Shown here in pieces: positions 1,879 through 23,118 of a DNA stretch of 64,000 bases. This DNA is from an uncultured virus (IMG/VR IMGVR_UViG_2599185221_000008). Lineage: Duplodnaviria > Heunggongvirae > Uroviricota > Caudoviricetes. The translations under genes were made by a program, and so were the position numbers. How positions within the stretch are numbered: position 1 is the stretch's first letter; every line of letters begins with the position of its first letter. The notes under the pieces are model-generated. The model worked only from the letters and a program-made list of their open reading frames with translations, made no database searches and was not told where the DNA came from. Location: IMG/VR virus record IMGVR_UViG_2599185221_000008; one strand, written 5' to 3'.

Positions 1879-3023
1879 TCGTTAGTAATTGTTTCAAACG
1901 ATAAAACCCACACATCAAGCTCGGTGCCATCTTCGTCCAATGCTTTCTGATCTGTTTTTGAAAGTACAAGGCTATCGCAACCGTATGCTTGTAACATTTC
2001 TTTCGTAATCATTCCCTTACGATCAGTATCAGCTTGGGTGTCATTAACTGGTGTTACTAAACCTGCTGCTGCAAGTCTACCTTTAATCCAACGACCAAGA
2101 ATGAGTTCATCGCCAACAGCACTGAATTGTTTATTGCCATCGCTTGTGGTATGAGCTTTAAACCAATAGCCATCATCGGTTACAACAAAAAAAGGCTTGT
2201 TTTTTTCAGGGTAACCTTCTGAACGAGTTATCGCTTTGCTAACAGTCAATTGAGTTTCGTACCAATCACGGGATTTCCTTTTACTTCGTGGTGCGGCATA
2301 GCTAACATTTATATTTGACTTTGTGAAATGCTTACCATCATCCATATGCCGCTCATCGTAAGCAGGAACTTTTAATGGCAGTACAAAAGAAACGTCTGTT
2401 TTATGCTGTTCATAAAGCTGTACACCAGTTTGGGGAATCTGTGTTACCGTATCAATGCCACTAAGTGATGTGTTAACTTCCCTGACTATTGGCATTCCTA
2501 TAATGTTAGCAATATTATCAGAGCAGTTCTGAGCCTTTAGCTTCTCTAAAAATTCAGCAATTTCTTTACATTCAGTAGCATCATCAGTAACCGATGAGAT
2601 TTCATATTGCCTACGGTTATTAGCATCTAATTTGATTACACCTAAGTTTGCGGAACCAATAATAGCAGAAAAAGGTTGCCCATCTTTATAAAAGCAGTAT
2701 ACTTTTCCATGATATTTGAATGCTTTTACGATCTTAATTTCACCTATACCAGTCTCTGTCCATTTTTTGTTGATTTCTAAAGCAGTATTATATGATCCTT
2801 CTGGCATTCCTTCGATGAAGTACATTCCAATGGTAAGGCATATACTAGATATATTATGCTCTTCGACCAGATTGTCGAGTTCTTCCAAGGCAACACGAGA
2901 AATATATCCAACCGCAATTTCAACACGGTCTGATTTTGCAATTTGCTCGTTAAAACAATTTATAATTGTTTGTTGACCCTCTGATGTTCCAAGAGGTAGG
3001 ATGTTTGAATATAACAGTTTCAT
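1875..3023 (-). CDS. PLD-family restriction endonuclease, NgoFVII/R.CglI-like
   Basis: IAVGY, YHGKVY (HxK) and IIGSANL PLD motifs, plus a C-terminal putative B3-like DNA-binding region; start moved to the ATG at 3023 following SD AAGGAG. Confidence 0.85.
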   Translation of the reverse strand: MKLLYSNILPLGTSEGQQTIINCFNEQIAKSDRVEIAVGYISRVALEELDNLVEEHNISSICLTIGMYFIEGMPEGSYNTALEINKKWTETGIGEIKIVKAFKYHGKVYCFYKDGQPFSAIIGSANLGVIKLDANNRRQYEISSVTDDATECKEIAEFLEKLKAQNCSDNIANIIGMPIVREVNTSLSGIDTVTQIPQTGVQLYEQHKTDVSFVLPLKVPAYDERHMDDGKHFTKSNINVSYAAPRSKRKSRDWYETQLTVSKAITRSEGYPEKNKPFFVVTDDGYWFKAHTTSDGNKQFSAVGDELILGRWIKGRLAAAGLVTPVNDTQADTDRKGMITKEMLQAYGCDSLVLSKTDQKALDEDGTELDVWVLSFETITNE

Positions 3024-3027
3024 TAGC

Positions 3028-3258
3028 TCACTCCTTTGTTTTTGGTGGGGTTTCTGTAGTTTTTTCAATCTCCATAATATCTGAAATATCGCAGTTAAGC
3101 GCCTTACATACTTTTATTAAAATGTCAGTATTAACATTTTCATTTTTTCCAAGCTTAGCCATTGAAGCTGTACTAATACCAGCTGCTTCTCTTAAGTCCT
3201 TTTTTTTCATATCTCTATCAATAAGAAGTTTCCATAGTTTTTTATAACTTATGGACAT
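3028..3258 (-). CDS. XRE/Cro-C1 HTH regulator heading the restriction operon
   Basis: SYKKLWKLLIDRDMKKKDL...ICKALNCDISDIME-type HTH_26 signature; SD GAGGTG. Confidence 0.9.
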   Translation of the reverse strand: MSISYKKLWKLLIDRDMKKKDLREAAGISTASMAKLGKNENVNTDILIKVCKALNCDISDIMEIEKTTETPPKTKE

Positions 3259-3313
3259 AATATCACCTCGCCTTAGTACCTAGCCTAAGTTAATAAATAA
3301 AGTTTATCACAAA

Positions 3314-3384
3314 GTTAGCGAAGCAACAATTAAAATTCGCAAACGTAAAATAAATGTTGAGGCAATCAAAATACATGTTATAAT
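3314..3384 (+). promoter_or_regulatory. Inverted-repeat operator (GTTAGCGAA-N13-TTCGCAAAC) and sigma-A-like promoter TTGAGG-N16-TATAAT with extended TG
   Basis: Read directly in the divergent intergenic region. Confidence 0.55.
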
Positions 3385-3459
3385 TTACCTATGAACTAAT
3401 GTTTGAATAGTAAAAATCCTTAAAGATATTAATTTCATATGGGGTGAGGAGGGAGTGCC

Positions 3460-5328
3460 TTGGCGGGTAATCGTTCTTTTAAAGATTACGTGGATGGTAG
3501 ATTCTATAATGAGATATTTTCTGCCATACAAACCTATGCAACGGATAATTGTGAAGATTTAGACTTACGGTTATACAGAGTTCAAAACATTGGCGGCATT
3601 GAGTTATCAGATATAGAAGTAAAGTTCGTATCTGTTAATGACTTACCGGACATGAAAATAGAATTTGATGTTGCTGTTGAAGCGGAATTCGAAGTCCGTG
3701 AATCAAATCATCGTTATGATGAATCAGAAAATTGCCGGCAATGGTTTATGCTAGAATGCTCAGGTGATTTGGATTGCAATTTGGATGATTTTTCAATCTC
3801 TAGTATAACGGAGTATACTAGCAAAAATAAGCAGCCGAAACCTATGTCAGACTCCCTTGTCCCTATCATTCATAAGGAACAACTAGAATCTGTTGCCACA
3901 GACTTCCTTAGAAGACATTACCCTGAAGCATTAAAAACCCCAATGGCAGTTGAGCCACAGGTGTTGGCAGAAAAAATGGGCCTTACAGTAGAAATGAGGG
4001 AGATTACAAAGGATTTCTCTGTTTTTGGGCAGATATACTTTCACGACTGTGATGCAGAATTTTATAATGTAGACATCGATGAAATGGTACAGACCCGTGT
4101 GAGTGGCCGTACAATAATCGTGGACCCTAAAGCTTACTTCCTTCGTAATCTGGGATCAGTCAATAATACTATTGTGCATGAGTGTGTTCATTGGGATCAA
4201 CATAGAAAAGCATTTGAATTGGAGCGGTTGTATAACAGCAGTGCCACACGAATCAAGTGTCAGGTGGTCGGAGGTATAAAAGACAATACCAGAGATGCAA
4301 CTGACTGGATGGAGTGGCAGGCGAATGCCCTCGCTCCAAAGATACAAATGCCACTTGCTATGTTTAAAACCCAAGCGTTCAAATTTATTAAGCAATTCCG
4401 TTCAGAACTGGGAACATCTGAACTTATAGATGTAATGGAGCCAGTTATTGATGCATTAGCAACGTTCTTCAGTGTATCTCGGACAGCAGCTAAAATCCGA
4501 ATGATTGATGCTGGATATGAGGAAGCAATCGGAACCTTTACTTACATAGATGGTCGCTACGTCAAGCCTCATAGATTTAAGAAGGGTGCTCTTGAAAGAA
4601 ATCAGACCTTTTCTATAGGTGCAGAGGATGCTGCCATCCAAAGCATAACCAATCCAGAAATGGCCGCTTTAGTTAGGGACGGAAGTTATATATATGTAGA
4701 TTCCCACTTTGTCTTAAACCATCCAAAATATATAACGCAGGATATATTTGGACAGACTGTACTTTCGAACTATGCACGAACCCATATGGATGAGTGCTGC
4801 TTGGTTTTCGAGTTATCAGTCAAATCTGGGTGCAAGGAAAGATATTATACTGAATGTTTTCTCAATCGTGATAAGACATCGAATATTGATTTTGATATAA
4901 AATATTGTAATGGTTTTGAGTATGCGGCTCCAGAAAAGAAGGCCCAACTACTAGCCGAAACAATAGCTGAAGAAATGCGAATCTATAATGAATTGCCAAA
5001 TAGCTATACCAGCTCTCTTAAAATAGTTCGTAAGTGGAGAAAAGTAACTTATAACGAATTAGCAGAGGAAATAATGGTCAATGAGCGTACCATAAGAAGA
5101 ATAGTTAATGGTGAAGAACCAGGCTCTATTAATTCCATAGTTTTAATTTGCCTTGGACTTCATCTGCCACCTAAAATTAGTAACCATATAATTAGCAATT
5201 CTCCATTTTCGTTGAACTTCAATAACAATAGTCATATTTGGTATGATTTTGCATTGACTCACCTATATCCAAAATCGATGGATGAGATTAGAACATTTTT
5301 ACAGGAACATGGCGCAGAGCCATTATAA
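3460..5328 (+). CDS. ImmA/IrrE-family metallopeptidase fused to a C-terminal XRE HTH
   Basis: TIVHECVHW (HExxH), EWQANALAPKIQMP, FSVSRTAAKIR; C-terminal TYNELAEEIMVNERTIRRIVNG HTH; TTG start with strong SD. Confidence 0.8.
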   Translation: MAGNRSFKDYVDGRFYNEIFSAIQTYATDNCEDLDLRLYRVQNIGGIELSDIEVKFVSVNDLPDMKIEFDVAVEAEFEVRESNHRYDESENCRQWFMLECSGDLDCNLDDFSISSITEYTSKNKQPKPMSDSLVPIIHKEQLESVATDFLRRHYPEALKTPMAVEPQVLAEKMGLTVEMREITKDFSVFGQIYFHDCDAEFYNVDIDEMVQTRVSGRTIIVDPKAYFLRNLGSVNNTIVHECVHWDQHRKAFELERLYNSSATRIKCQVVGGIKDNTRDATDWMEWQANALAPKIQMPLAMFKTQAFKFIKQFRSELGTSELIDVMEPVIDALATFFSVSRTAAKIRMIDAGYEEAIGTFTYIDGRYVKPHRFKKGALERNQTFSIGAEDAAIQSITNPEMAALVRDGSYIYVDSHFVLNHPKYITQDIFGQTVLSNYARTHMDECCLVFELSVKSGCKERYYTECFLNRDKTSNIDFDIKYCNGFEYAAPEKKAQLLAETIAEEMRIYNELPNSYTSSLKIVRKWRKVTYNELAEEIMVNERTIRRIVNGEEPGSINSIVLICLGLHLPPKISNHIISNSPFSLNFNNNSHIWYDFALTHLYPKSMDEIRTFLQEHGAEPL

Positions 5329-6897: not shown

Positions 6898-8038
6898 TCA
6901 TGCAGTTCTTTCCGCATCAGGCGCCCATAGGTGGCTGAATTGCCTTCCGTCTGCACGATTGGAACTGGAGTTTGTAAATAACGAATCCAGTGCAGCCGCT
7001 GAAGGCACCGCCGCCCATGCTCTCTGTGAACATAAGCTTAAAAAAGCACTTCACATGAGAAGTAAGCGTCCTGTCTCAGTTTATAACTCCGATGCGATGG
7101 AAGAACACAGTGATGCCTATGTGGAATTTGTAATGGAACAGCTTGAGCTGGCAAAGCAGAGCTGCACAGACCCTTTAATACTAATCGAACAGCGTCTTGA
7201 TTTTTCCTGCTATGTTCCACAGGGATTTGGAACCGGTGACTGCATCATTATTGCAGATAAGAAACTTCACATTATCGATTTCAAGTATGGCATGGGAGTA
7301 TTGGTGGATGCGGTGGACAATCCACAGATGAAACTGTATGCACTGGGTGCTTTAGAAATTTACGATAGTTTGTACGACATCGAGGAAGTGTCCATGACCA
7401 TTTTCCAGCCACGCAGAGAGAATGTCAGCACATGGACAATACGGGTAGAGGATTTAAAAGCTTGGGCAGAAAAAGAACTAAAACCAAAGGCAAAAAAAGC
7501 TTATGACGGTGAAGGTGAATATCTTCCGGGTGAGTGGTGTACTTTCTGCCGAGCGGCAGTTAAATGCCGTGCTAGGGCTGAGGAAAAACTGAAATTGGCA
7601 CAATCGGAGTTTAAACTACCTCCACTACTTACGGACTCTGAAATCGAGGAAGTTCTATCTAAACTGTCCGACCTTACGAAATGGGCAAATGAAATCATTG
7701 CATATGCCACCGATGCAGCTGTTAATCATGGGAAAGAGTGGCATGGTTTTAAGGTTGTTGAGGGCAGATCTGTCCGCAAATACAAGGATGAAGATGCTGT
7801 GGCTGAAGTAGCCAAAGCAAACGGTTATAAAGATATCTTTCGTCAGAGTCTCATCACTCTTACGGAAATGGAAAGGCTGATGGGCAAATCAAAATTTGAG
7901 AAGATACTCGGTGATCTTATATACAAGCCACCGGGAAAGCCGACTCTGGTCCCGCTATCGGATAAGCGTCCGGCTATGAACGTATCAAACGCAAAAAACG
8001 AATTTAACGAAATAACGGAGGAATGTGAATATGAATAA
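6890..8038 (+). CDS. DUF2800 PD-(D/E)XK (Cas4-like) nuclease
   Basis: HAVLSASGAHRWLNC, GTGDCIII, IIDFKYG, NPQMKLYALGA, WCTFC. Confidence 0.85.
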   Translation: MSDHAVLSASGAHRWLNCLPSARLELEFVNNESSAAAEGTAAHALCEHKLKKALHMRSKRPVSVYNSDAMEEHSDAYVEFVMEQLELAKQSCTDPLILIEQRLDFSCYVPQGFGTGDCIIIADKKLHIIDFKYGMGVLVDAVDNPQMKLYALGALEIYDSLYDIEEVSMTIFQPRRENVSTWTIRVEDLKAWAEKELKPKAKKAYDGEGEYLPGEWCTFCRAAVKCRARAEEKLKLAQSEFKLPPLLTDSEIEEVLSKLSDLTKWANEIIAYATDAAVNHGKEWHGFKVVEGRSVRKYKDEDAVAEVAKANGYKDIFRQSLITLTEMERLMGKSKFEKILGDLIYKPPGKPTLVPLSDKRPAMNVSNAKNEFNEITEECEYE

Positions 8039-8579
8039 TAAAAACAGAACGAAGGTTATCACTGGTGTAAACACACGTCTCAGCTACTTTCATGGCTGGG
8101 AACCGGTATCCATCAATGGTGGGGCAGAAAAGTATAGTGTATCGGTATTGATTCCTAAATCGGATAAGGAAACCATTAATGCCATCAATGCAGCAGTTGA
8201 TGCTGCTATTGAAGAGGGCATTGCAAAGTTTGGTGGTAAAAAGCCAAATAAGGCTGCTATCAAGCTACCACTTCGAGATGGTGATGTAGAACGAGATGAT
8301 GAGGCTTATAAAGGACATTATTTTGTAAATGCCAACAGCACTACTCCGCCTCAGATTGTAGATAAAGCAGTCAAGCCTATTCTGGATCGCAATGAGGTAT
8401 ACAGTGGTTGCTATGCAAGAGTGTCACTTAATTTCTATGCTTTCAATTCTAACGGTAACAAGGGTGTGGCCTGTGGACTTGGTAACATCCAAAAGATTAG
8501 AGATGGAGAGCCTTTAGGCAGCAGAACCACAGCGGCTGATGATTTCACCACAATTGAAGATGATGATTTCCTAGCATAA
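8031..8579 (+). CDS. DUF2815 ssDNA-binding protein (T7 gp2.5-like)
   Basis: LPLRDGD, VYSGCYAR, GLGNIQKIRDGEPL, acidic tail DDDFLA. Confidence 0.85.
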   Translation: MNNKNRTKVITGVNTRLSYFHGWEPVSINGGAEKYSVSVLIPKSDKETINAINAAVDAAIEEGIAKFGGKKPNKAAIKLPLRDGDVERDDEAYKGHYFVNANSTTPPQIVDKAVKPILDRNEVYSGCYARVSLNFYAFNSNGNKGVACGLGNIQKIRDGEPLGSRTTAADDFTTIEDDDFLA

Positions 8580-8658
8580 CAGCTAAAGTATGAATACAAA
8601 CGGGGTGGTGGAAGTTGTTCTTCTGTCACCTCGTTTGCATTGGAAAGGGTGGTAATAC

Positions 8659-17329: not shown

Positions 17330-17881
17330 ATGGCCAAAGATGGAACAAATCGTGGCGGTGCCCGTATAGGTTCTGGTCAAAAAAAGAAACCACTTGCTGA
17401 TAAAATTGCACAGGGAAATCCAGGTAAGAGAAAGCTAGAAATCATTGACTTCCAAAATACCGCTGATTTAAAGGGGCAGGAAATGCCAAAGCCAAGGGCC
17501 ATGCTCTCAGCGGTGCAAAAGGACGGGAAAACCCTAGTAGCCAGCGAGATTTATGAAATTACTTGGAAATGGCTTGAGGAGCGAGGCTGTGCCCATTTGG
17601 TGCTCCCACAGCTTCTAGAACGATATGCCATGAGTGCGGCCAGATGGATACAGTGTGAGGAGGCGGTAACTGAGTTTGGCTTTCTTGCCAAGCATCCAAC
17701 TACCGGCAATGCTATTCAAAGTCCTTATGTAGCTATGAGTCAGAACTTTATGAGTCAGACAAACAGATTGTGGATGGAGATTTATCAAATCGTTAAAGAG
17801 AATTGTGCTACAGAGTATTCTGGTTTAAACCCACAGGACGATGTGATGGAGCGACTGCTATCTGCCCGCAGAGGAAAATAA
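17330..17881 (+). CDS. terS: Terminase small subunit (P27 family)
   Basis: RGGARIGSG, GNPGKR, HPTTGNAIQSPYV; position after HNH. Confidence 0.8.
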   Translation: MAKDGTNRGGARIGSGQKKKPLADKIAQGNPGKRKLEIIDFQNTADLKGQEMPKPRAMLSAVQKDGKTLVASEIYEITWKWLEERGCAHLVLPQLLERYAMSAARWIQCEEAVTEFGFLAKHPTTGNAIQSPYVAMSQNFMSQTNRLWMEIYQIVKENCATEYSGLNPQDDVMERLLSARRGK

Positions 17882-17898
17882 AGATGAGGAGATATGTA

Positions 17899-19080
17899 AT
17901 GAGTAAAAGATATTTAACAGCTGAAAGTGTATGTGCTGGACATCCTGATAAACTATGCGACATCATAGCAGATAGCATTTTAGAAGCATGTTTACGTAAA
18001 GATAAAGCATCACGTGTTGCTTGTGAGGTAATGGCAACCAAAGGGAAAATTATCGTGGCGGGCGAAATCTCCTGCAGCGAGAAAATAGACATCCGATACA
18101 TTGTTAGGAATGTCCTTAAAGAGATTGGATACAACCCTCTTAAATTCTTGATTTATGTATTTGTACACAAACAAAGTGTAGATATTGCAACTGGCGTGGA
18201 TACTGCACTGGAAGTAAGAAATGGAATAAATGAACAGTATGGTTCGATAGGTGCTGGAGACCAAGGAACTGTGTACGGCTATGCTACAAAGGAAACAGGA
18301 GAAATGCTTCCCCTACCCCTTGTACTATCTCACAGGATTGTAAAGAGACTGGATGATTGCCGAAAAGGGAAACTGATAAAAGGTATCCACCCAGATGGTA
18401 AAGCGCAGGTGACGGTGGAATATGAAGGGGACACTCCAGTGCGAATAAAGACTATTGTGATATCGGTACAGCATGATAAGAATAAAACACAGGAAGAACT
18501 AAAGACAGATATCCTTAACAATGTCCTATGGCAGTGCTTTGAGGACTTCCCATTTGATGATGAAACAGAAATTCTCATTAACCCCTCTGGTAGATTTGTC
18601 GAAGGTGGTCCCGCTGCCGATACAGGCTTAACTGGTAGAAAAATTATGGTTGATACCTATGGAGGACTTGCATCCCATGGAGGTGGCGCACTTAGTGGTA
18701 AAGACCCCACCAAAGTTGACCGAAGCGGTGTCTATATGGCTCGGTACATTGCAAAGCATATCGTCTGGTGTGGTTATGCAAAGAGATGTGAAGTTAGTAT
18801 ATCCTATGCCATTGGTAAGGCAAATCCTGTAGCCTTTTCTGTAAATACTCTTGGCACAGGTATTGTTTCTGACGAAATATTAACTCTTGCTGCACAGGAG
18901 ATTTTCAATTTAAGACCTGCGGCAATCATAGAGAAGTTGCGTCTAAGGAATGTGATTTACTCTGATACAGCTGTTTATGGTCACTTTAATAGTTGTCTAT
19001 TCCCGTGGGAGGATGTAAATAAGTACAGTGAATTTAGAAAGGCGGTGGAAAAGTATGTTGATAGAGAAGATAAAAACTAA
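17899..19080 (+). CDS. metK: S-adenosylmethionine synthetase
   Basis: ESVCAGHPDK, GAGDQG, PDGKAQV, DTGLTGRKIMVDTYGG, SGKDPTKVDRS. Confidence 0.93.
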   Translation: MSKRYLTAESVCAGHPDKLCDIIADSILEACLRKDKASRVACEVMATKGKIIVAGEISCSEKIDIRYIVRNVLKEIGYNPLKFLIYVFVHKQSVDIATGVDTALEVRNGINEQYGSIGAGDQGTVYGYATKETGEMLPLPLVLSHRIVKRLDDCRKGKLIKGIHPDGKAQVTVEYEGDTPVRIKTIVISVQHDKNKTQEELKTDILNNVLWQCFEDFPFDDETEILINPSGRFVEGGPAADTGLTGRKIMVDTYGGLASHGGGALSGKDPTKVDRSGVYMARYIAKHIVWCGYAKRCEVSISYAIGKANPVAFSVNTLGTGIVSDEILTLAAQEIFNLRPAAIIEKLRLRNVIYSDTAVYGHFNSCLFPWEDVNKYSEFRKAVEKYVDREDKN

Positions 19081-20296
19081 ACAACTCATCCCCGCTGAAT
19101 ATAACCCAAGGAAGGATTTAAAACCGGGTGATCCGGAATATGAGAAACTTAAACGTTCCCTTGAGGAGTTTGGATATGTAGAACCCGTAATATGGAATAA
19201 GACCACAGGCAGAGTCATCGGAGGTCATCAGCGTTTGAAAATCCTGCTGAGTATGGGCATGGAGGAGATAGATTGCGTAGTTGTTGAATTGGATGAGCAA
19301 AAGGAGAAGGCGCTGAACATTGCACTAAATAAAATAAGTGGTGATTGGGATAAAGACAAATTAGCACTTCTCATCACGGACTTAAATGCTTCAGACTTTG
19401 ATGTGTCTTTGACAGGTTTTGACCCAGGAGAGTTGGACGATCTTTTCAAGGATTCCCTTAAGGATAATATAAAAGAAGATGATTTCGATGTAGACAGCGA
19501 GCTGAAAAAGCCCGCTGTTTCGCATTTAGGGGATATTTGGCTACTTGGACAGCATCGATTAGTCTGCGGAGACAGTACAAAGAAAGACACCTTTGATGTC
19601 TTGATGGATGGGAAAACTGCTAATTTGGTAGTTACGGACCCTCCATATAATGTTAACTATGAAGGCACTGCTGGAAAAATCAAAAATGACAATATGGCTA
19701 ACGAAGCGTTCTACGATTTCCTGCTTGCAGCATTTCAGAACACCGAAGCAGCGATGGCAAAGGACGCTTCTATTTATGTATTCCATGCGGATACCGAAGG
19801 ACTCAATTTTAGAAGAGCATTCTCCGATGCAGGATTTTATCTTTCCGGTACTTGTATTTGGAAAAAGCAGTCCCTTGTTCTCGGTCGCTCTCCTTATCAG
19901 TGGCAGCATGAACCTATTCTCTTTGGGTGGAAAAAGAAAGGCAAGCATAACTGGTATTCCGATAGAAAGCAGACCACCATCTGGGAATTTGAGAAACCAA
20001 AGAAAAATGGCGACCATCCAACCATGAAACCAGTGGCACTTGTGGCATATCCCATTATGAACTCAAGCCTTTCTAATTGTATCGTGCTTGATCCTTTTGG
20101 TGGTTCAGGAAGCACACTGATTGCCTGTGAGCAGACAGATAGAATCTGTTACAGCATTGAACTGGATGAAAAGTACTGTGATGTCATTGTGAAAAGGTAT
20201 ATTGAGCAAGTTGGAAAATCAGACAGTGTGTTTCTCCTAAGAGATGGTTCGAAAATAAGATATTGTGACCTGCCGGAGGTGAATGTAGATGAGTAA
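19055..20296 (+). CDS. ParB-N domain fused to an N4/N6 DNA methyltransferase (beta class)
   Basis: YNPRK and IGGHQR (ParB-N); DPPY, HPTMKP, LDPFGGSGST. Confidence 0.9.
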   Translation: MLIEKIKTKQLIPAEYNPRKDLKPGDPEYEKLKRSLEEFGYVEPVIWNKTTGRVIGGHQRLKILLSMGMEEIDCVVVELDEQKEKALNIALNKISGDWDKDKLALLITDLNASDFDVSLTGFDPGELDDLFKDSLKDNIKEDDFDVDSELKKPAVSHLGDIWLLGQHRLVCGDSTKKDTFDVLMDGKTANLVVTDPPYNVNYEGTAGKIKNDNMANEAFYDFLLAAFQNTEAAMAKDASIYVFHADTEGLNFRRAFSDAGFYLSGTCIWKKQSLVLGRSPYQWQHEPILFGWKKKGKHNWYSDRKQTTIWEFEKPKKNGDHPTMKPVALVAYPIMNSSLSNCIVLDPFGGSGSTLIACEQTDRICYSIELDEKYCDVIVKRYIEQVGKSDSVFLLRDGSKIRYCDLPEVNVDE

Positions 20297-22232
20297 ATTG
20301 AGACTCGGCTCCCTTTTTGATGGGAGCGGAGGTTTTCCTCTAGGCGGTCTGCTCTGTGGCATTGAGCCTTTATGGGCATCTGAAATTGAGCCGTTTCCTA
20401 TAAGAGTTACGACCAAACGCATCCCTCAGATGAAGCATTATGGGGATATAAACAAATTAAATGGTGCGGAGCTTCCACCTGTAGATATCATAACATTTGG
20501 CTCTCCCTGCACAGATATGAGTGTGGCGGGTAAAAGAGCTGGTCTGGACGGAGAACAATCCGTCCTTTTTTATGAAGCAATAAGAATTATCAAGGAAATG
20601 AGGTGTAAGACCAATGGACAATATCCAAGGTATGCAGTCTGGGAAAATGTCCCCGGCGCATTCTCGTCAAATAAAGGAGAGGACTTTAGAGCAGTCCTCG
20701 AAGCGGTCATCGGTGTCAAAGAGCCGAACACCTCGGTGCCTTTACATGAAAAAGGACGATGGCCATACGCTGACATCTATATGGGAGACGGATGGAGTGT
20801 GGCTTACCGAACTATCGATGCGCAATATTTCGGAGTACCCCAACGTCGTCGTAGAATCTACCTTGTCGCAGATTTTGCAGGCAGATGTGCCGCAGAAATA
20901 CTATTTGAGTCCGAAGGCATGCCAAGGAATTTTGCGCCGAGCGGCAGCCCGTGGCAAAGAACTTCCGGAAATGCTAAAAACTGCACTGGAAAGACAGGCA
21001 CTGTATGCTTAAACGATCAAGGTGGACAACGCATCGATGTGCTTGATGGTAAGACAGCAACACTTAGAGCAAAAGCAAATCATCCACCCTGTGTAATGTT
21101 TGAAAACCACAGTCAAGATACACGATACAAAGGCCCCGTTGATGTAGCACCAACTGTATCCGCTACATATGGGAAGGGTGGTAATAATCAACCTTTTGTA
21201 ACAACTGCTGGATTCTGCACAGAACATTCATCGGATAGTCGTAGTATTGGATATGAGGAGGAAATTTCACCAACGTTAAGGGCAGGAGTCGTACCAGCGG
21301 CTGTATCATTAAATGAGACTCCAAAGACCCTAAAAATTCGTTCTGGGTGTGAAGGTGGCGGTAAAGGTGCGTTAATTCAAGATGATAAGTCTGCGACCCT
21401 TGGATGCAACAATGACCAGACCGTTTTTGTGCCTACTGCATTTGGCATCTGTTCTGATAAGAGCAACTCTATGCAGTCAAGCAATCCTCATAGCGGTATA
21501 TATGAAGCGGATACTTCTCGAACCATCGATGCTAATGGTGGAAATCCGGGATGTAATCAAGGTGGTATTGCTGTAGTTGCTCTTCAAGGCTCTATGATTG
21601 GAAGACAGGATAAAAACGGTCCTCAAGGAGCTGGCATAAATGATAATATGAGTTTTACTCTTAATACAGTGGATCGACATGGTGTTGTGTATGCAATTGA
21701 TCGTGAAACCTTTAACTGCGGACAGAATTTTGCTAGAAATTTAGGGATAACAGAAGACAGTGTTGCTTCAACATTAAATGCTCAAGGCCCATCGGCTGTG
21801 GCACAACCTTATCAAAATATCAGCGGTACGATTTCTGCAGGTGCACATCCAAGTGGTTTTAACGGTCAGGATGCATCAAACGATATGCTTATTACAGTCA
21901 AGAAAAACGATGAGCCAAATTATATCGTCCGAAGGCTTACACCAACAGAATGTGCAAGATTGCAAGGCTTCCCGGATGATTGGTGTGATGACCTTGGTAC
22001 GGAAAATCCTACAGAAGATGAAATTTCATTCTGGACGGAGGTTTGGGAAACCCATCGCAAAATCATGGGTAAGAGTAGCAAGCCGAAAACAAGAAAGCAA
22101 ATTATTAAATGGCTTAACAACCCTCATTCCGATTCAGCTGAGTACAAAATGTGGGGTAATGGTGTAGCACTTCCATGCGTCTGTTTTGTGCTGACTGGCA
22201 TTGTGTTATCTGCACGGAATACCGCCGATTAA
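20289..22232 (+). CDS. DNA (cytosine-5) methyltransferase with a very long modular variable region
   Basis: LFDGSGG (I), GSPC (IV), ENV (VI), QRRRRIY (VIII), RRLTPTECARLQGFPD (IX), GNGV (X). Confidence 0.92.
   Translation: MSKLRLGSLFDGSGGFPLGGLLCGIEPLWASEIEPFPIRVTTKRIPQMKHYGDINKLNGAELPPVDIITFGSPCTDMSVAGKRAGLDGEQSVLFYEAIRIIKEMRCKTNGQYPRYAVWENVPGAFSSNKGEDFRAVLEAVIGVKEPNTSVPLHEKGRWPYADIYMGDGWSVAYRTIDAQYFGVPQRRRRIYLVADFAGRCAAEILFESEGMPRNFAPSGSPWQRTSGNAKNCTGKTGTVCLNDQGGQRIDVLDGKTATLRAKANHPPCVMFENHSQDTRYKGPVDVAPTVSATYGKGGNNQPFVTTAGFCTEHSSDSRSIGYEEEISPTLRAGVVPAAVSLNETPKTLKIRSGCEGGGKGALIQDDKSATLGCNNDQTVFVPTAFGICSDKSNSMQSSNPHSGIYEADTSRTIDANGGNPGCNQGGIAVVALQGSMIGRQDKNGPQGAGINDNMSFTLNTVDRHGVVYAIDRETFNCGQNFARNLGITEDSVASTLNAQGPSAVAQPYQNISGTISAGAHPSGFNGQDASNDMLITVKKNDEPNYIVRRLTPTECARLQGFPDDWCDDLGTENPTEDEISFWTEVWETHRKIMGKSSKPKTRKQIIKWLNNPHSDSAEYKMWGNGVALPCVCFVLTGIVLSARNTAD
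20614..21012 (+). CDS. Nested +1-frame ORF, putative C5-MTase beta-subunit-like polypeptide
   Basis: SD GAGGTG 8 nt upstream; ESTLSQILQ...YYLSPKACQGILRRAAARGKELPEML resembles M.EcoHK31I beta as recalled. Confidence 0.65.
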   Translation: MDNIQGMQSGKMSPAHSRQIKERTLEQSSKRSSVSKSRTPRCLYMKKDDGHTLTSIWETDGVWLTELSMRNISEYPNVVVESTLSQILQADVPQKYYLSPKACQGILRRAAARGKELPEMLKTALERQALYA

Positions 22233-22269
22233 TGGAACAGTATTTTCTACAGAAAGATGCCCTAAATGA

Positions 22270-22313
22270 CTTGATATTAACAGCCTTTAGAGTGATATAT
22301 GTATGTACCGAAA
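22270..22313 (+). promoter_or_regulatory. Promoter-like motif CTTGxTA...GCCTTTAGAGTGATATATGTA, copy 1
   Basis: Near-identical copy at 23405-23447. Confidence 0.55.
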
Positions 22314-22332
22314 ATAGAAAGGCGGTATAAAA

Positions 22333-23118
22333 ATGCAGATAAACTATAATGTCACAGGAGCAAAAAGAAAAGAGTTAGTCAACGCAATCAGCCAAAAACT
22401 GAATGCTCCTGTAAGATATCTTGGAGCACCTACATTTGCATATGAGGTGGCAGACTACAACATTGACAAAAACGGGGTAGTCAGAGGACCAGATAATTCT
22501 GAACTGGTTAATGATCTATTAGGCCTTTATGACTTCAATGCGGTTACAGCAGAATATGACACACCACTTCCAAAAGCAGAGCTTGTTCCTGAAAATATTC
22601 AAATTCCCTATGAAGCGGCTCTTGGTGGAAGGGTAAGCCCATATAATGATTACGAAGAATCTCCCGTATACGCCGAGCCAGATGAAATCGAAGATGTTAG
22701 ATTGATTATTCAAATGCCGAGGGAGAGTTTTACCGAAATCGCACTTGATAACCTAAAAGGATTGGTAGAAAGCAAAGAAACCCTTATAAAGAAAGCACTT
22801 GATACTGACTCTATTCCCATTATCGTAAATGAGGAATTTGTAACCTTCCCCTGGTTCCAAAGTGAGTGCTCCGCAGAGGAGGTTAAGGCTTATACTCACT
22901 TTGTAACAGCACTTTGCGAAATGGCAAAGAAGCAGACTCGCGTCAACTCGACCGAGAAATCAGTGGAGAATGAAAAGTACGCTTTCCGTTGTTTCCTTCT
23001 AAGACTTGGCTTTATCGGTCCAGAATACAAAACCGAACGAAAAATTCTCCTCTCCAAACTGTCCGGTAGCTCTGCCTTCAAAAGCGGAACTGCCAAGCAT
23101 AAGGAGGTGAGTGAATAA
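22333..23118 (+). CDS. Conserved phage protein ('virulence-related') sharing its C-terminal domain with the amidoligase
   Basis: YLGAPTFAYEV; C-terminal ENEKYAFRCFLLRLGFIG. Confidence 0.7.
   Translation: MQINYNVTGAKRKELVNAISQKLNAPVRYLGAPTFAYEVADYNIDKNGVVRGPDNSELVNDLLGLYDFNAVTAEYDTPLPKAELVPENIQIPYEAALGGRVSPYNDYEESPVYAEPDEIEDVRLIIQMPRESFTEIALDNLKGLVESKETLIKKALDTDSIPIIVNEEFVTFPWFQSECSAEEVKAYTHFVTALCEMAKKQTRVNSTEKSVENEKYAFRCFLLRLGFIGPEYKTERKILLSKLSGSSAFKSGTAKHKEVSE

Follow-up and report, generated by a model that had tools for sequence, protein, structure and literature searches.

A 132-codon open reading frame (ORF) lies in the +1 frame wholly inside the gene of a C5 cytosine DNA methyltransferase on a 64,000-nucleotide stretch of DNA from an uncultured virus of the Caudoviricetes (IMG/VR record IMGVR_UViG_2599185221_000008), which as a whole is called the window in the following. 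The conservation data support a real, selected and overprinted gene with its own ribosome-binding site in a phage methyltransferase gene, as had been claimed in a first-pass annotation made from the letters of the window, and it is highly probable that this gene is also translated. With regard to its product, the best explanation as a whole, towards which we lean slightly, is a translated small protein that is part of the methyltransferase; the role as a subunit, taken by itself, is evenly balanced between right and wrong.

The main ORF codes for a protein of 647 amino acids in which the C5 methyltransferase motifs I (FxGxG), IV (PC), VI (ENV), VIII (QxRxR), IX and X all occur in a single frame, with GNGVALP near the C-terminus. 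PF00145 matches this protein in three stretches (E=5.5e-41, Pfam search), TIGR00675 of NCBIfam equally matches, and residues 3-134, 172-194 and 547-565 align to M.HhaI, covering motifs I-VI, VIII and IX. Motifs VI (ENVPG, residues 119-123) and VIII (QRRRR, residues 185-189) are overlapped by the nested ORF, whose frame is given by its start as (20614-20289) mod 3 = 1. A 132-codon ORF over motifs VI-VIII, with GAGGTG 8 nucleotides before its ATG, is found in the sequence just as first described, and motif IX does stay in the main frame, its residues being aligned to residues 271-289 of M.HhaI (Table 1).

Table 1. Positions in the window of the nested gene and its parts, of the surrounding methyltransferase gene and of the gene upstream. 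TRD, target recognition domain.
Feature	Position	Strand	Basis
Nested +1-frame gene, 132 codons plus stop, ATG start	20614..21012	+	ORF list; wholly inside main ORF
TGA in the +1 frame, four codons ahead of the nested ATG	20599..20601	+	Sequence; within conserved ATG-AGG main-frame codons
Shine-Dalgarno sequence GAGGTG, 8 nucleotides before the nested ATG	20600..20605	+	Synonymous-site conservation
Nested N-terminal ~80 codons, over motifs VI-VIII	20614..20856	+	Weak +1 constraint; predicted mostly disordered, predicted local distance difference test (pLDDT) 43-66
Conserved nested C-terminal domain, residues 82-130 (LSQIL...KYYLS..., then two helices)	20857..21003	+	Alignment, entropy, substitutions
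Main ORF, 647-amino-acid multi-TRD C5 cytosine DNA methyltransferase	20289..22232	+	PF00145, TIGR00675, M.HhaI alignment
Main-frame Gly/Ser/Pro/Thr-rich linker, residues ~200-228, motif VIII to first TRD cassette	20886..20972	+	Poorly conserved in alignment
Motif IX of the main protein, residues 547-565	21927..21983	+	Aligned to M.HhaI 271-289
Upstream gene, ParB_N and N6/N4 DNA methyltransferase	19028..20296	+	PF01555, PF02195; 8-nucleotide overlap with the C5 methyltransferase start

Relatives were fetched by main-frame similarity only, so that their choice is not biased toward the nested ORF. From 304 stretches 295 relatives were obtained, and the best 80 of these 295, which were kept, represent 78 distinct loci, each of them matched by the nested product (78/78). 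In two loci (L046, L049) a contig end truncates the region; in all 76 that hold the complete region, the +1 frame is uninterrupted over 130-141 codons and contains an ATG-started ORF of 129-137 codons. This openness persists although the +1 products drop to 46% identity, and the third frame is open for just 8-76 codons in the same 76 loci, with 195 codons in one case. Equally, among loci on viral contigs, likewise chosen for their main-frame similarity, the match is present in 92 of 96, and in each of these 92 a stop ends the +1 frame 2-11 codons past the conserved end, with the main frame continuing for at least 179 codons beyond the nested end. For the statistics, 10 loci without enough flank were removed and the 69 sequences, the window included, were reduced to 29 at less than 90% nucleotide identity. 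When the synonymous main-frame codons were shuffled within each sequence (2000 shuffles each), 2.6 stops in the +1 frame were expected on average, with a mean probability of openness of 0.075 (range 0.0005-0.31), whereas 0 stops were observed in 29 of 29 sequences; outside the ORF, stops in the actual +1 frame number 6.7 per 100 codons on the upstream side and 3.8 on the downstream side. Stop-codon avoidance, which the first-pass annotation had proposed as a check on homologs, is thus evident.

The suppression of synonymous variation in homologs, proposed alongside, is borne out at the codons of the Shine-Dalgarno sequence and of the ATG and over the last ~50 codons of the overlap. In nearly all relatives the +1 open stretch starts 12 nucleotides before the ATG. 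The Arg codon within the Shine-Dalgarno sequence is AGG in 29 of the 29 non-redundant relatives, whereas comparison Arg codons nearby use five codons each, one of them AGA, CGA, CGC, CGG and CGT, another AGA in 21 cases, AGG in 4 and others in 4. The preceding Glu codon is GAA in 28 of 29, and the nested ATG is kept in 29 of 29, the overlapping main-frame codon being AAT (25), GAT (3) or CAT (1) and never AAC or GAC. Such a constraint on the synonymous sites of the AGG, GAA and AAT-type codons is exactly what a ribosome-binding site together with a start codon would impose.

Over the end of the overlap, the codon periodicity is that of the nested frame. Entropy at main-frame codon positions 1, 2 and 3 amounts to 0.51, 0.29 and 1.44 upstream and to 0.95, 0.44 and 0.46 in codons 180-233, and in codons 200-225 it is ~1.3 at the first and ~0.3 at the third position, which is the periodicity of the +1 frame. 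The main-frame linker in this part, with first-position entropies of 1.0-1.4, varies freely in sequence. Among pairwise single-base differences, the synonymous share upstream is 60% in the main frame and 17% in the +1 frame; it is 41% and 24%, respectively, in the first ~75 overlapped codons and 21% and 55% in the last ~50. In the alignment of 37 nested products the last 50 residues are nearly invariant (consensus LSQIL...KYYLSPKAC.GILRRA..RGKELP..L..ALE.QA) and the first 80 are loosely conserved. Furthermore, near-identical copies are found in RNA-library contigs of four studies, and of their five variants inside the stretch coding for the conserved domain, four hit the wobble position of the +1 frame, three of them being silent in that frame and all four altering a main-frame residue. 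Modelled alone, the nested protein has a mean pLDDT of 62, with a disordered N-terminus and two confident C-terminal helices (residues 100-113 and 119-131, pLDDT 85-90 in the predicted structure). Read most simply, these data point to a translated +1 frame, with the C-terminal domain as the product for which this DNA is selected.

A connection of this domain to the enzyme is suggested by relatives in which the gene is naturally split. Eighty viral loci were fetched with P0385, a called protein that joins the nested module to TRDs and motifs IX and X, and 77 of them have a plus-strand match: 39 show the strict nested layout, 22 others have a longer nested ORF of 183 codons inside an uninterrupted main frame, 7 are truncated or broken and 6 are split (L186, L184, L185, L189, L222 and L223). 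In L186 (positions 1945-3826), ORF-A, which carries motifs I-VIII, stops soon past motif VIII, and ORF-B, of 441 amino acids, continues the nested frame with the nested module followed by TRD cassettes, motif IX and motif X; in split forms the two ORFs overlap by about 370 nucleotides. The stop of ORF-A is at the identical position in L184, L185, L186 and L189, loci at 53-68% identity to P0385. An independent permuted version is found in L222 and L223, where ORF-B also ends with motif I and ORF-A begins after motif I, an arrangement that reads as a circular permutation at the gene level. Proteins of the ORF-B build also recur among called proteins (P0341 with 20 members, P0382-P0385). Of ten fused proteins of module, TRD, IX and X that were looked up, eight are single-member clusters, seven of these eight being ORF-B-like and not relied on; only fused forms confirmed on DNA were used. 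That motifs I-VIII, the nested module and the TRD-IX-X part always occur together, with a covalent linkage that varies, is expected of parts of one complex. As a separate observation, read from the ORF translations, in L184 (470-2350) a 626-amino-acid ORF of a putative group II intron-type reverse transcriptase/maturase lies directly upstream of the remaining methyltransferase part, which resumes at motif VI (..PGAFSS..) as though an intron had inserted in the gene.

The position of the nested domain in the fold can be sketched from the same split relative L186. An AlphaFold2 model of its ORF-B is confident in two places only, the C-terminal domain of the nested module (pLDDT 77-86) and motif IX (80-84). 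Compared with 48,161 PDB chains, the best seven matches of this model are all C5 methyltransferases, with Z from 5.6 to 3.7. Six of the seven alignments begin at model residues 94-97, which is the start of the nested domain, the one with Shigella Dcm (3lx6_B) beginning at residue 35, and in the matched chains the alignments begin just past motif VIII. EhMeth (3qv2_A) leads with Z 5.6, a root-mean-square deviation of 2.9 and 79 aligned residues over chain positions 189-302, followed by DNMT3A (Z 4.5) and Dnmt2 (Z 4.3). This model-based placement of the nested domain next to motif IX is a weak hint, not proof. In the second C5 methyltransferase of the window's own genome, described below, 23 residues separate motif VIII from the TRD block, as compared with 61 in M.HhaI, in line with the absence of a segment from the main chain.

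The data show the ORF itself, the signals for its start and its selection; in the explanation favoured here, ribosomes would initiate on the methyltransferase messenger RNA at the nested gene's own Shine-Dalgarno sequence and ATG. The first ~80 residues of the 132-amino-acid product would be a weakly constrained and largely disordered leader, imposed by main-frame motifs VI-VIII, and the last ~50 a small helical domain under strong purifying selection. We infer that this domain binds as a non-covalent part of the methyltransferase; it may lie past motif VIII, where the catalytic domain meets the domain of TRDs and motif IX, and complete the hinge there. At that point the main chain of this family has no more than a short and unconserved linker, for which the same nucleotides code in frame 0. 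The enzyme would then be assembled from three pieces, I-VIII, the nested domain and TRDs-IX-X, the covalent connection of which differs between relatives.

Several points weigh against this explanation. The relatives are phylogenetically related, and the counts of open frames are thus not independent trials, their divergence being large though. The RNA-library copies (4 runs) are assembled contigs that give neither starts nor strand and no proof of transcription. Nesting physically locks both genes together, so that co-inheritance alone is uninformative on a shared function, and a single frameshift suffices to produce the split forms, with many of the fused database proteins being singletons. 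All Z values of the structural comparison are under 8, below the reliable level of the tool, the mean pLDDT of the model is 44, the match comes partly from motifs IX and X, and the placement derives from the split relative and not from the window's protein. Equally, sequence and profile searches in Pfam, NCBIfam and PDB gave no family for the nested product, and VIA-align of the nested model alone retrieved generic helical hairpins with Z of at most 4.1 and no methyltransferase.

The alternative that survives best, unlikely as we judge it, is that the nested protein is real but independent of methylation, acting for instance in regulation, in counter-defence or as a replisome adaptor, and simply uses the conserved gene as coding space. 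Homology of the nested product to any methyltransferase segment is detectable neither by sequence nor by profile, which speaks for such independence, as does the confident part of the nested model, a basic helix-turn-helix-like hairpin. Foldseek with the nested model gave nothing at E<=0.001, and the nested product of the genome's second methyltransferase has no sequence match in PDB. The matches in the ESM Atlas are unnamed, mostly viral 'hypothetical protein' clusters of 97-121 amino acids, and the PHROG family phrog_16143 ('DNA methyltransferase', 139 positions) matches the window product weakly, at E=0.0073 and over residues 71-104 only, and P0161 at E 3.3e-5. When aligned by hhalign, the nested family showed no similarity (probability 0.07) to the main family with its motif IX. 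A likeness of the nested ...LSPKAC.GIL... to motif IX had been considered and was dropped upon this alignment.

Further in favour of independence, several distant lineages carry an N-terminal QLxLF-like motif that resembles the beta-clamp-binding consensus, which we take to be of the QL[SD]LF type or Q-[LMVI]-x-[LMI]-F. Such motifs read QLTMF in Bcep22, QMTLF in MM1, QLDLF in Omega and Lucky2013, QVSIF in L186, QLTLF in L188 and QVSLF in L203, with the variants QLTFW in an Akkermansia phage and QLTLL in zjk6; at the extreme N-terminus of the nested ORF a QLxLF-like motif is seen in L175, L178, L180, L182, L186, L188, L203 and L269. On the other hand, the motif is missing from the window copy, the N-terminus of which reads ..IQGMQSG..., and from its whole clade, and occurs in 5 of 187 unique N-termini, each of which belongs to another lineage; clamp binding is thus a sequence-based hypothesis for the nested family and does not extend to the window's copy. 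Independence is equally contradicted by the recurrence of natural fusions of the module to the TRD/IX/X half and by the weak structural placement, which adjoins motif IX. A far-reaching extension of the favoured explanation unites both aspects and is decidedly speculative, less probable still than an independent function: the C5 methyltransferases of this family in phages and integrative and conjugative elements, from Firmicutes prophages to P1 and Omega, would be obligate multi-chain enzymes with an overprinted third piece, the nested protein would fill the element between motif VIII and the TRDs, and in many lineages a clamp-binding QLxLF motif in its disordered N-terminus would tether the methyltransferase to the replication fork, as a phage counterpart of the DNMT1-PCNA link, so as to methylate new phage DNA ahead of host restriction.

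Very improbable is programmed ribosomal frameshifting from the main frame, which would yield a protein of ~240 amino acids with motifs I-VIII and the nested C-terminus, and no separate 132-amino-acid protein. Database proteins of 233-250 amino acids have exactly such a build, some of them multi-member (P0294, P0359, P0352), but their junctions lie at differing places, as for frameshift mutations or errors. Between codons 105 and 175 the synonymous sites show no conservation of the kind that a slippery site would leave, and inspection of the sequence at the end of the nested ORF revealed no slippery heptamer. The Shine-Dalgarno sequence, the ATG and 80 upstream open codons are conserved, and a frameshift product would not need them. 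Across all loci of the analysis, a search for LSQIL...KYYLS following motif VIII in frame gave 0 loci with motif VIII in frame and two frameshifted forms (L271, L263).

Just as doubtful is a beta subunit of the EcoHK31I type, a nested polypeptide that gives motif IX to an alpha chain without one. The first-pass annotation had likened the nested ORF to this beta chain. M.EcoHK31I (YGGCCR) has its beta chain nested in another frame of the alpha gene, both chains are needed and beta can do without its first 42 residues in vitro (PMC2836561); beta carries motif IX, which alpha lacks (PMC2836561, PMC3404938). The same gene-in-gene layout in a C5 methyltransferase speaks for the comparison, and the dispensable beta residues find a parallel in the weakly conserved nested N-terminus. 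What stands of the likeness is that a small ORF is contained entirely in a C5 methyltransferase gene and read in a different frame; what does not is the supply of motif IX, since the main frame has a textbook motif IX and the hhalign comparison of the nested with the main family, motif IX included, gave the negative result mentioned above. The putative likeness to the beta chain in sequence is unsupported. Least probable of all is that the ORF yields no functional protein, its openness and conservation being due to main-frame constraints, nucleic-acid signals or the mere act of translation: main-frame constraint does dominate the N-terminal 80 codons, and ENVPG and other main-frame motifs by themselves dictate several of the conserved +1 residues, but over the last 50 codons the first positions of the main frame are as variable as wobble sites and the +1 amino acids are nearly invariant, a pattern predicted neither by an RNA or DNA signal nor by a peptide-independent upstream ORF, and the stop avoidance far exceeds the shuffles.

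The nested ORF is widely distributed. It is matched by 746 called proteins of 72-231 amino acids, and its last 64 residues gave 3567 matches at E<=0.001 against 1.84 billion cluster representatives. By tblastn against GenBank phages, the nested product was found in 139 records, with Vibrio (26), Mycobacterium (19) and Escherichia (13) among the hosts next to Streptococcus, Burkholderia, Pectobacterium, Caulobacter, Akkermansia and others. Relative to the annotated methyltransferase coding sequence, the nested ORF is in frame +1 in 14 of the 15 phage records checked, namely Bcep22, MA11, an Oscillospirales phage, P1 dmt, Omega, CP-T1, Akkermansia phage Chantilly, DMCA, Lucky2013, Smarc1, zjk6, Pm86, Saumur and Javan422. 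None of these 14 records lists the nested ORF, and the expectation that standard annotation misses such a gene holds for the most part. In the fifteenth, Faecalibacterium phage FP_Toutatis (L271:544-1149), the coding sequence annotated as 'DNA-cytosine methyltransferase' crosses from the main to the nested frame and is without motif VIII; either a frameshifted gene or a sequencing error in the record of a cultured phage can account for this. The signature [CS][ST]LS[DQ]IL ... [KR]Y[YF]LS is present in the window, MM1, Bcep22, MA11, P1, Omega, CP-T1 and DMCA. In Mycobacterium phage Omega (L180:1134-2438) the methyltransferase is annotated as the hypothetical proteins gp127 and gp128, which are in one frame with a stop and 6 nucleotides between them, and the nested ORF of 157 amino acids is located within gp127. 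The window's own genome holds a second, prophage-like pair on contig C42 (L265:1077-2408), a ParB-N6/N4 methyltransferase and an HhaI-like C5 methyltransferase of 443 amino acids, the latter with its own nested +1 ORF of 149 codons (L265:1219-1668), which ends in ..LLQILEAEVDEKYYLS.. and has the signature LLQIL...EKYYLS.

The C5 methyltransferase gene is located in a prophage, with a family A DNA polymerase, an antirepressor, a VapE-like protein, an SNF2 helicase, small and large terminase, portal and capsid among its neighbours. Short TRD-like cassettes (..TLRA.., ..TVSA.., ..TLG.., ..TLNT.. and others) follow each other in a string over residues ~240-540 of the main protein; their number varies among relatives, whose main proteins have 550-777 amino acids. 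Directly before both DNA methyltransferase genes lies a gene for S-adenosylmethionine synthetase (17803-19080, three S-AdoMet_synt domains), and the three genes (17803-19080, 19028-20296, 20289-22232) are linked in a chain by short overlaps. Together they form a possible cofactor-supply module for methylation during infection. A plus-strand sigma-70-like site that could serve as an internal promoter was not found in 19000-22600. A terminator-like hairpin with a T-run is seen at 20546-20565, inside the methyltransferase coding region and ~50 nucleotides ahead of the nested start; in the searched region 3 terminator-like hairpins were found against 3.0 expected from shuffles, which is chance level.

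To our knowledge, bacteria and phages rarely have long overlapping genes on the same strand for which purifying selection is clear, and the rules of annotation pipelines exclude such genes. The family of orphan anti-restriction methyltransferases that harbours the nested gene is very widespread, with 139 matching GenBank phage records including P1 dmt, and, being inside the methyltransferase gene, the nested gene has always been carried unnoticed by the cloned 'single-gene' methyltransferases of this family. If the nested protein is a required subunit, a specificity factor or a tethering factor, expression, engineering and cataloguing of these enzymes would change, as would the view of the evolution of split and permuted C5 methyltransferases, and a clean, testable model of dual coding would be at hand.

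Among known systems, M.EcoHK31I shares with the window a small chain encoded wholly within the gene of the large chain in another frame. It differs in that its beta chain has motif IX, whereas the window has this motif in the main chain, and its nested product does not resemble it at the profile level. In M.AquI (CYCGRG), a split alpha/beta C5 methyltransferase, one chain has motifs I-VIII and the second the variable region with IX and X (PMC3404938). The split relatives L186, L184, L185 and L189 are divided into the same two chains, but their ORFs overlap by about 370 nucleotides and their second chain begins with the nested module, and the window's own gene is unsplit. The multispecific C5 methyltransferases of temperate Bacillus phages (SPR, phi3T and others) reportedly carry TRD-like cassettes between motifs VIII and IX, as in the window; we know of no report of a nested ORF for them.

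The closest counterpart is found in Streptococcus pneumoniae phage MM1 (RefSeq NC_003050.2), where ORF14 (7631-8056, frame +1) lies inside ORF13 (7480-8637), both annotated as 'DNA methyltransferase'. As in the window, a +1 ORF of ~140 codons in a phage C5 methyltransferase gene ends shortly past motif VIII, and LSDIL...RYFLS of ORF14 corresponds to LSQIL...KYYLS of the window. The main enzyme of MM1 differs in being shorter, single-TRD and HhaI-like, and its nested protein is without the two terminal helices (GILRRA...ALERQA) of the window product. Furthermore, C5 methyltransferases of Streptococcus thermophilus 5093-group phages are described with an 'apparent total overlap ... in different reading frames', termed 'striking', and a similar overlap is cited for MM1 and Tn5252 (PMC5601072). 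A functional study of the nested ORF was not found in the limited literature searched. The 'different split architecture' that the first-pass annotation had put forward as a novelty is not new, as MM1 annotates the same nested ORF and the overlaps are mentioned in PMC5601072; the window's nested gene is a further member of a known but unexplained layout, that of the MM1 type.

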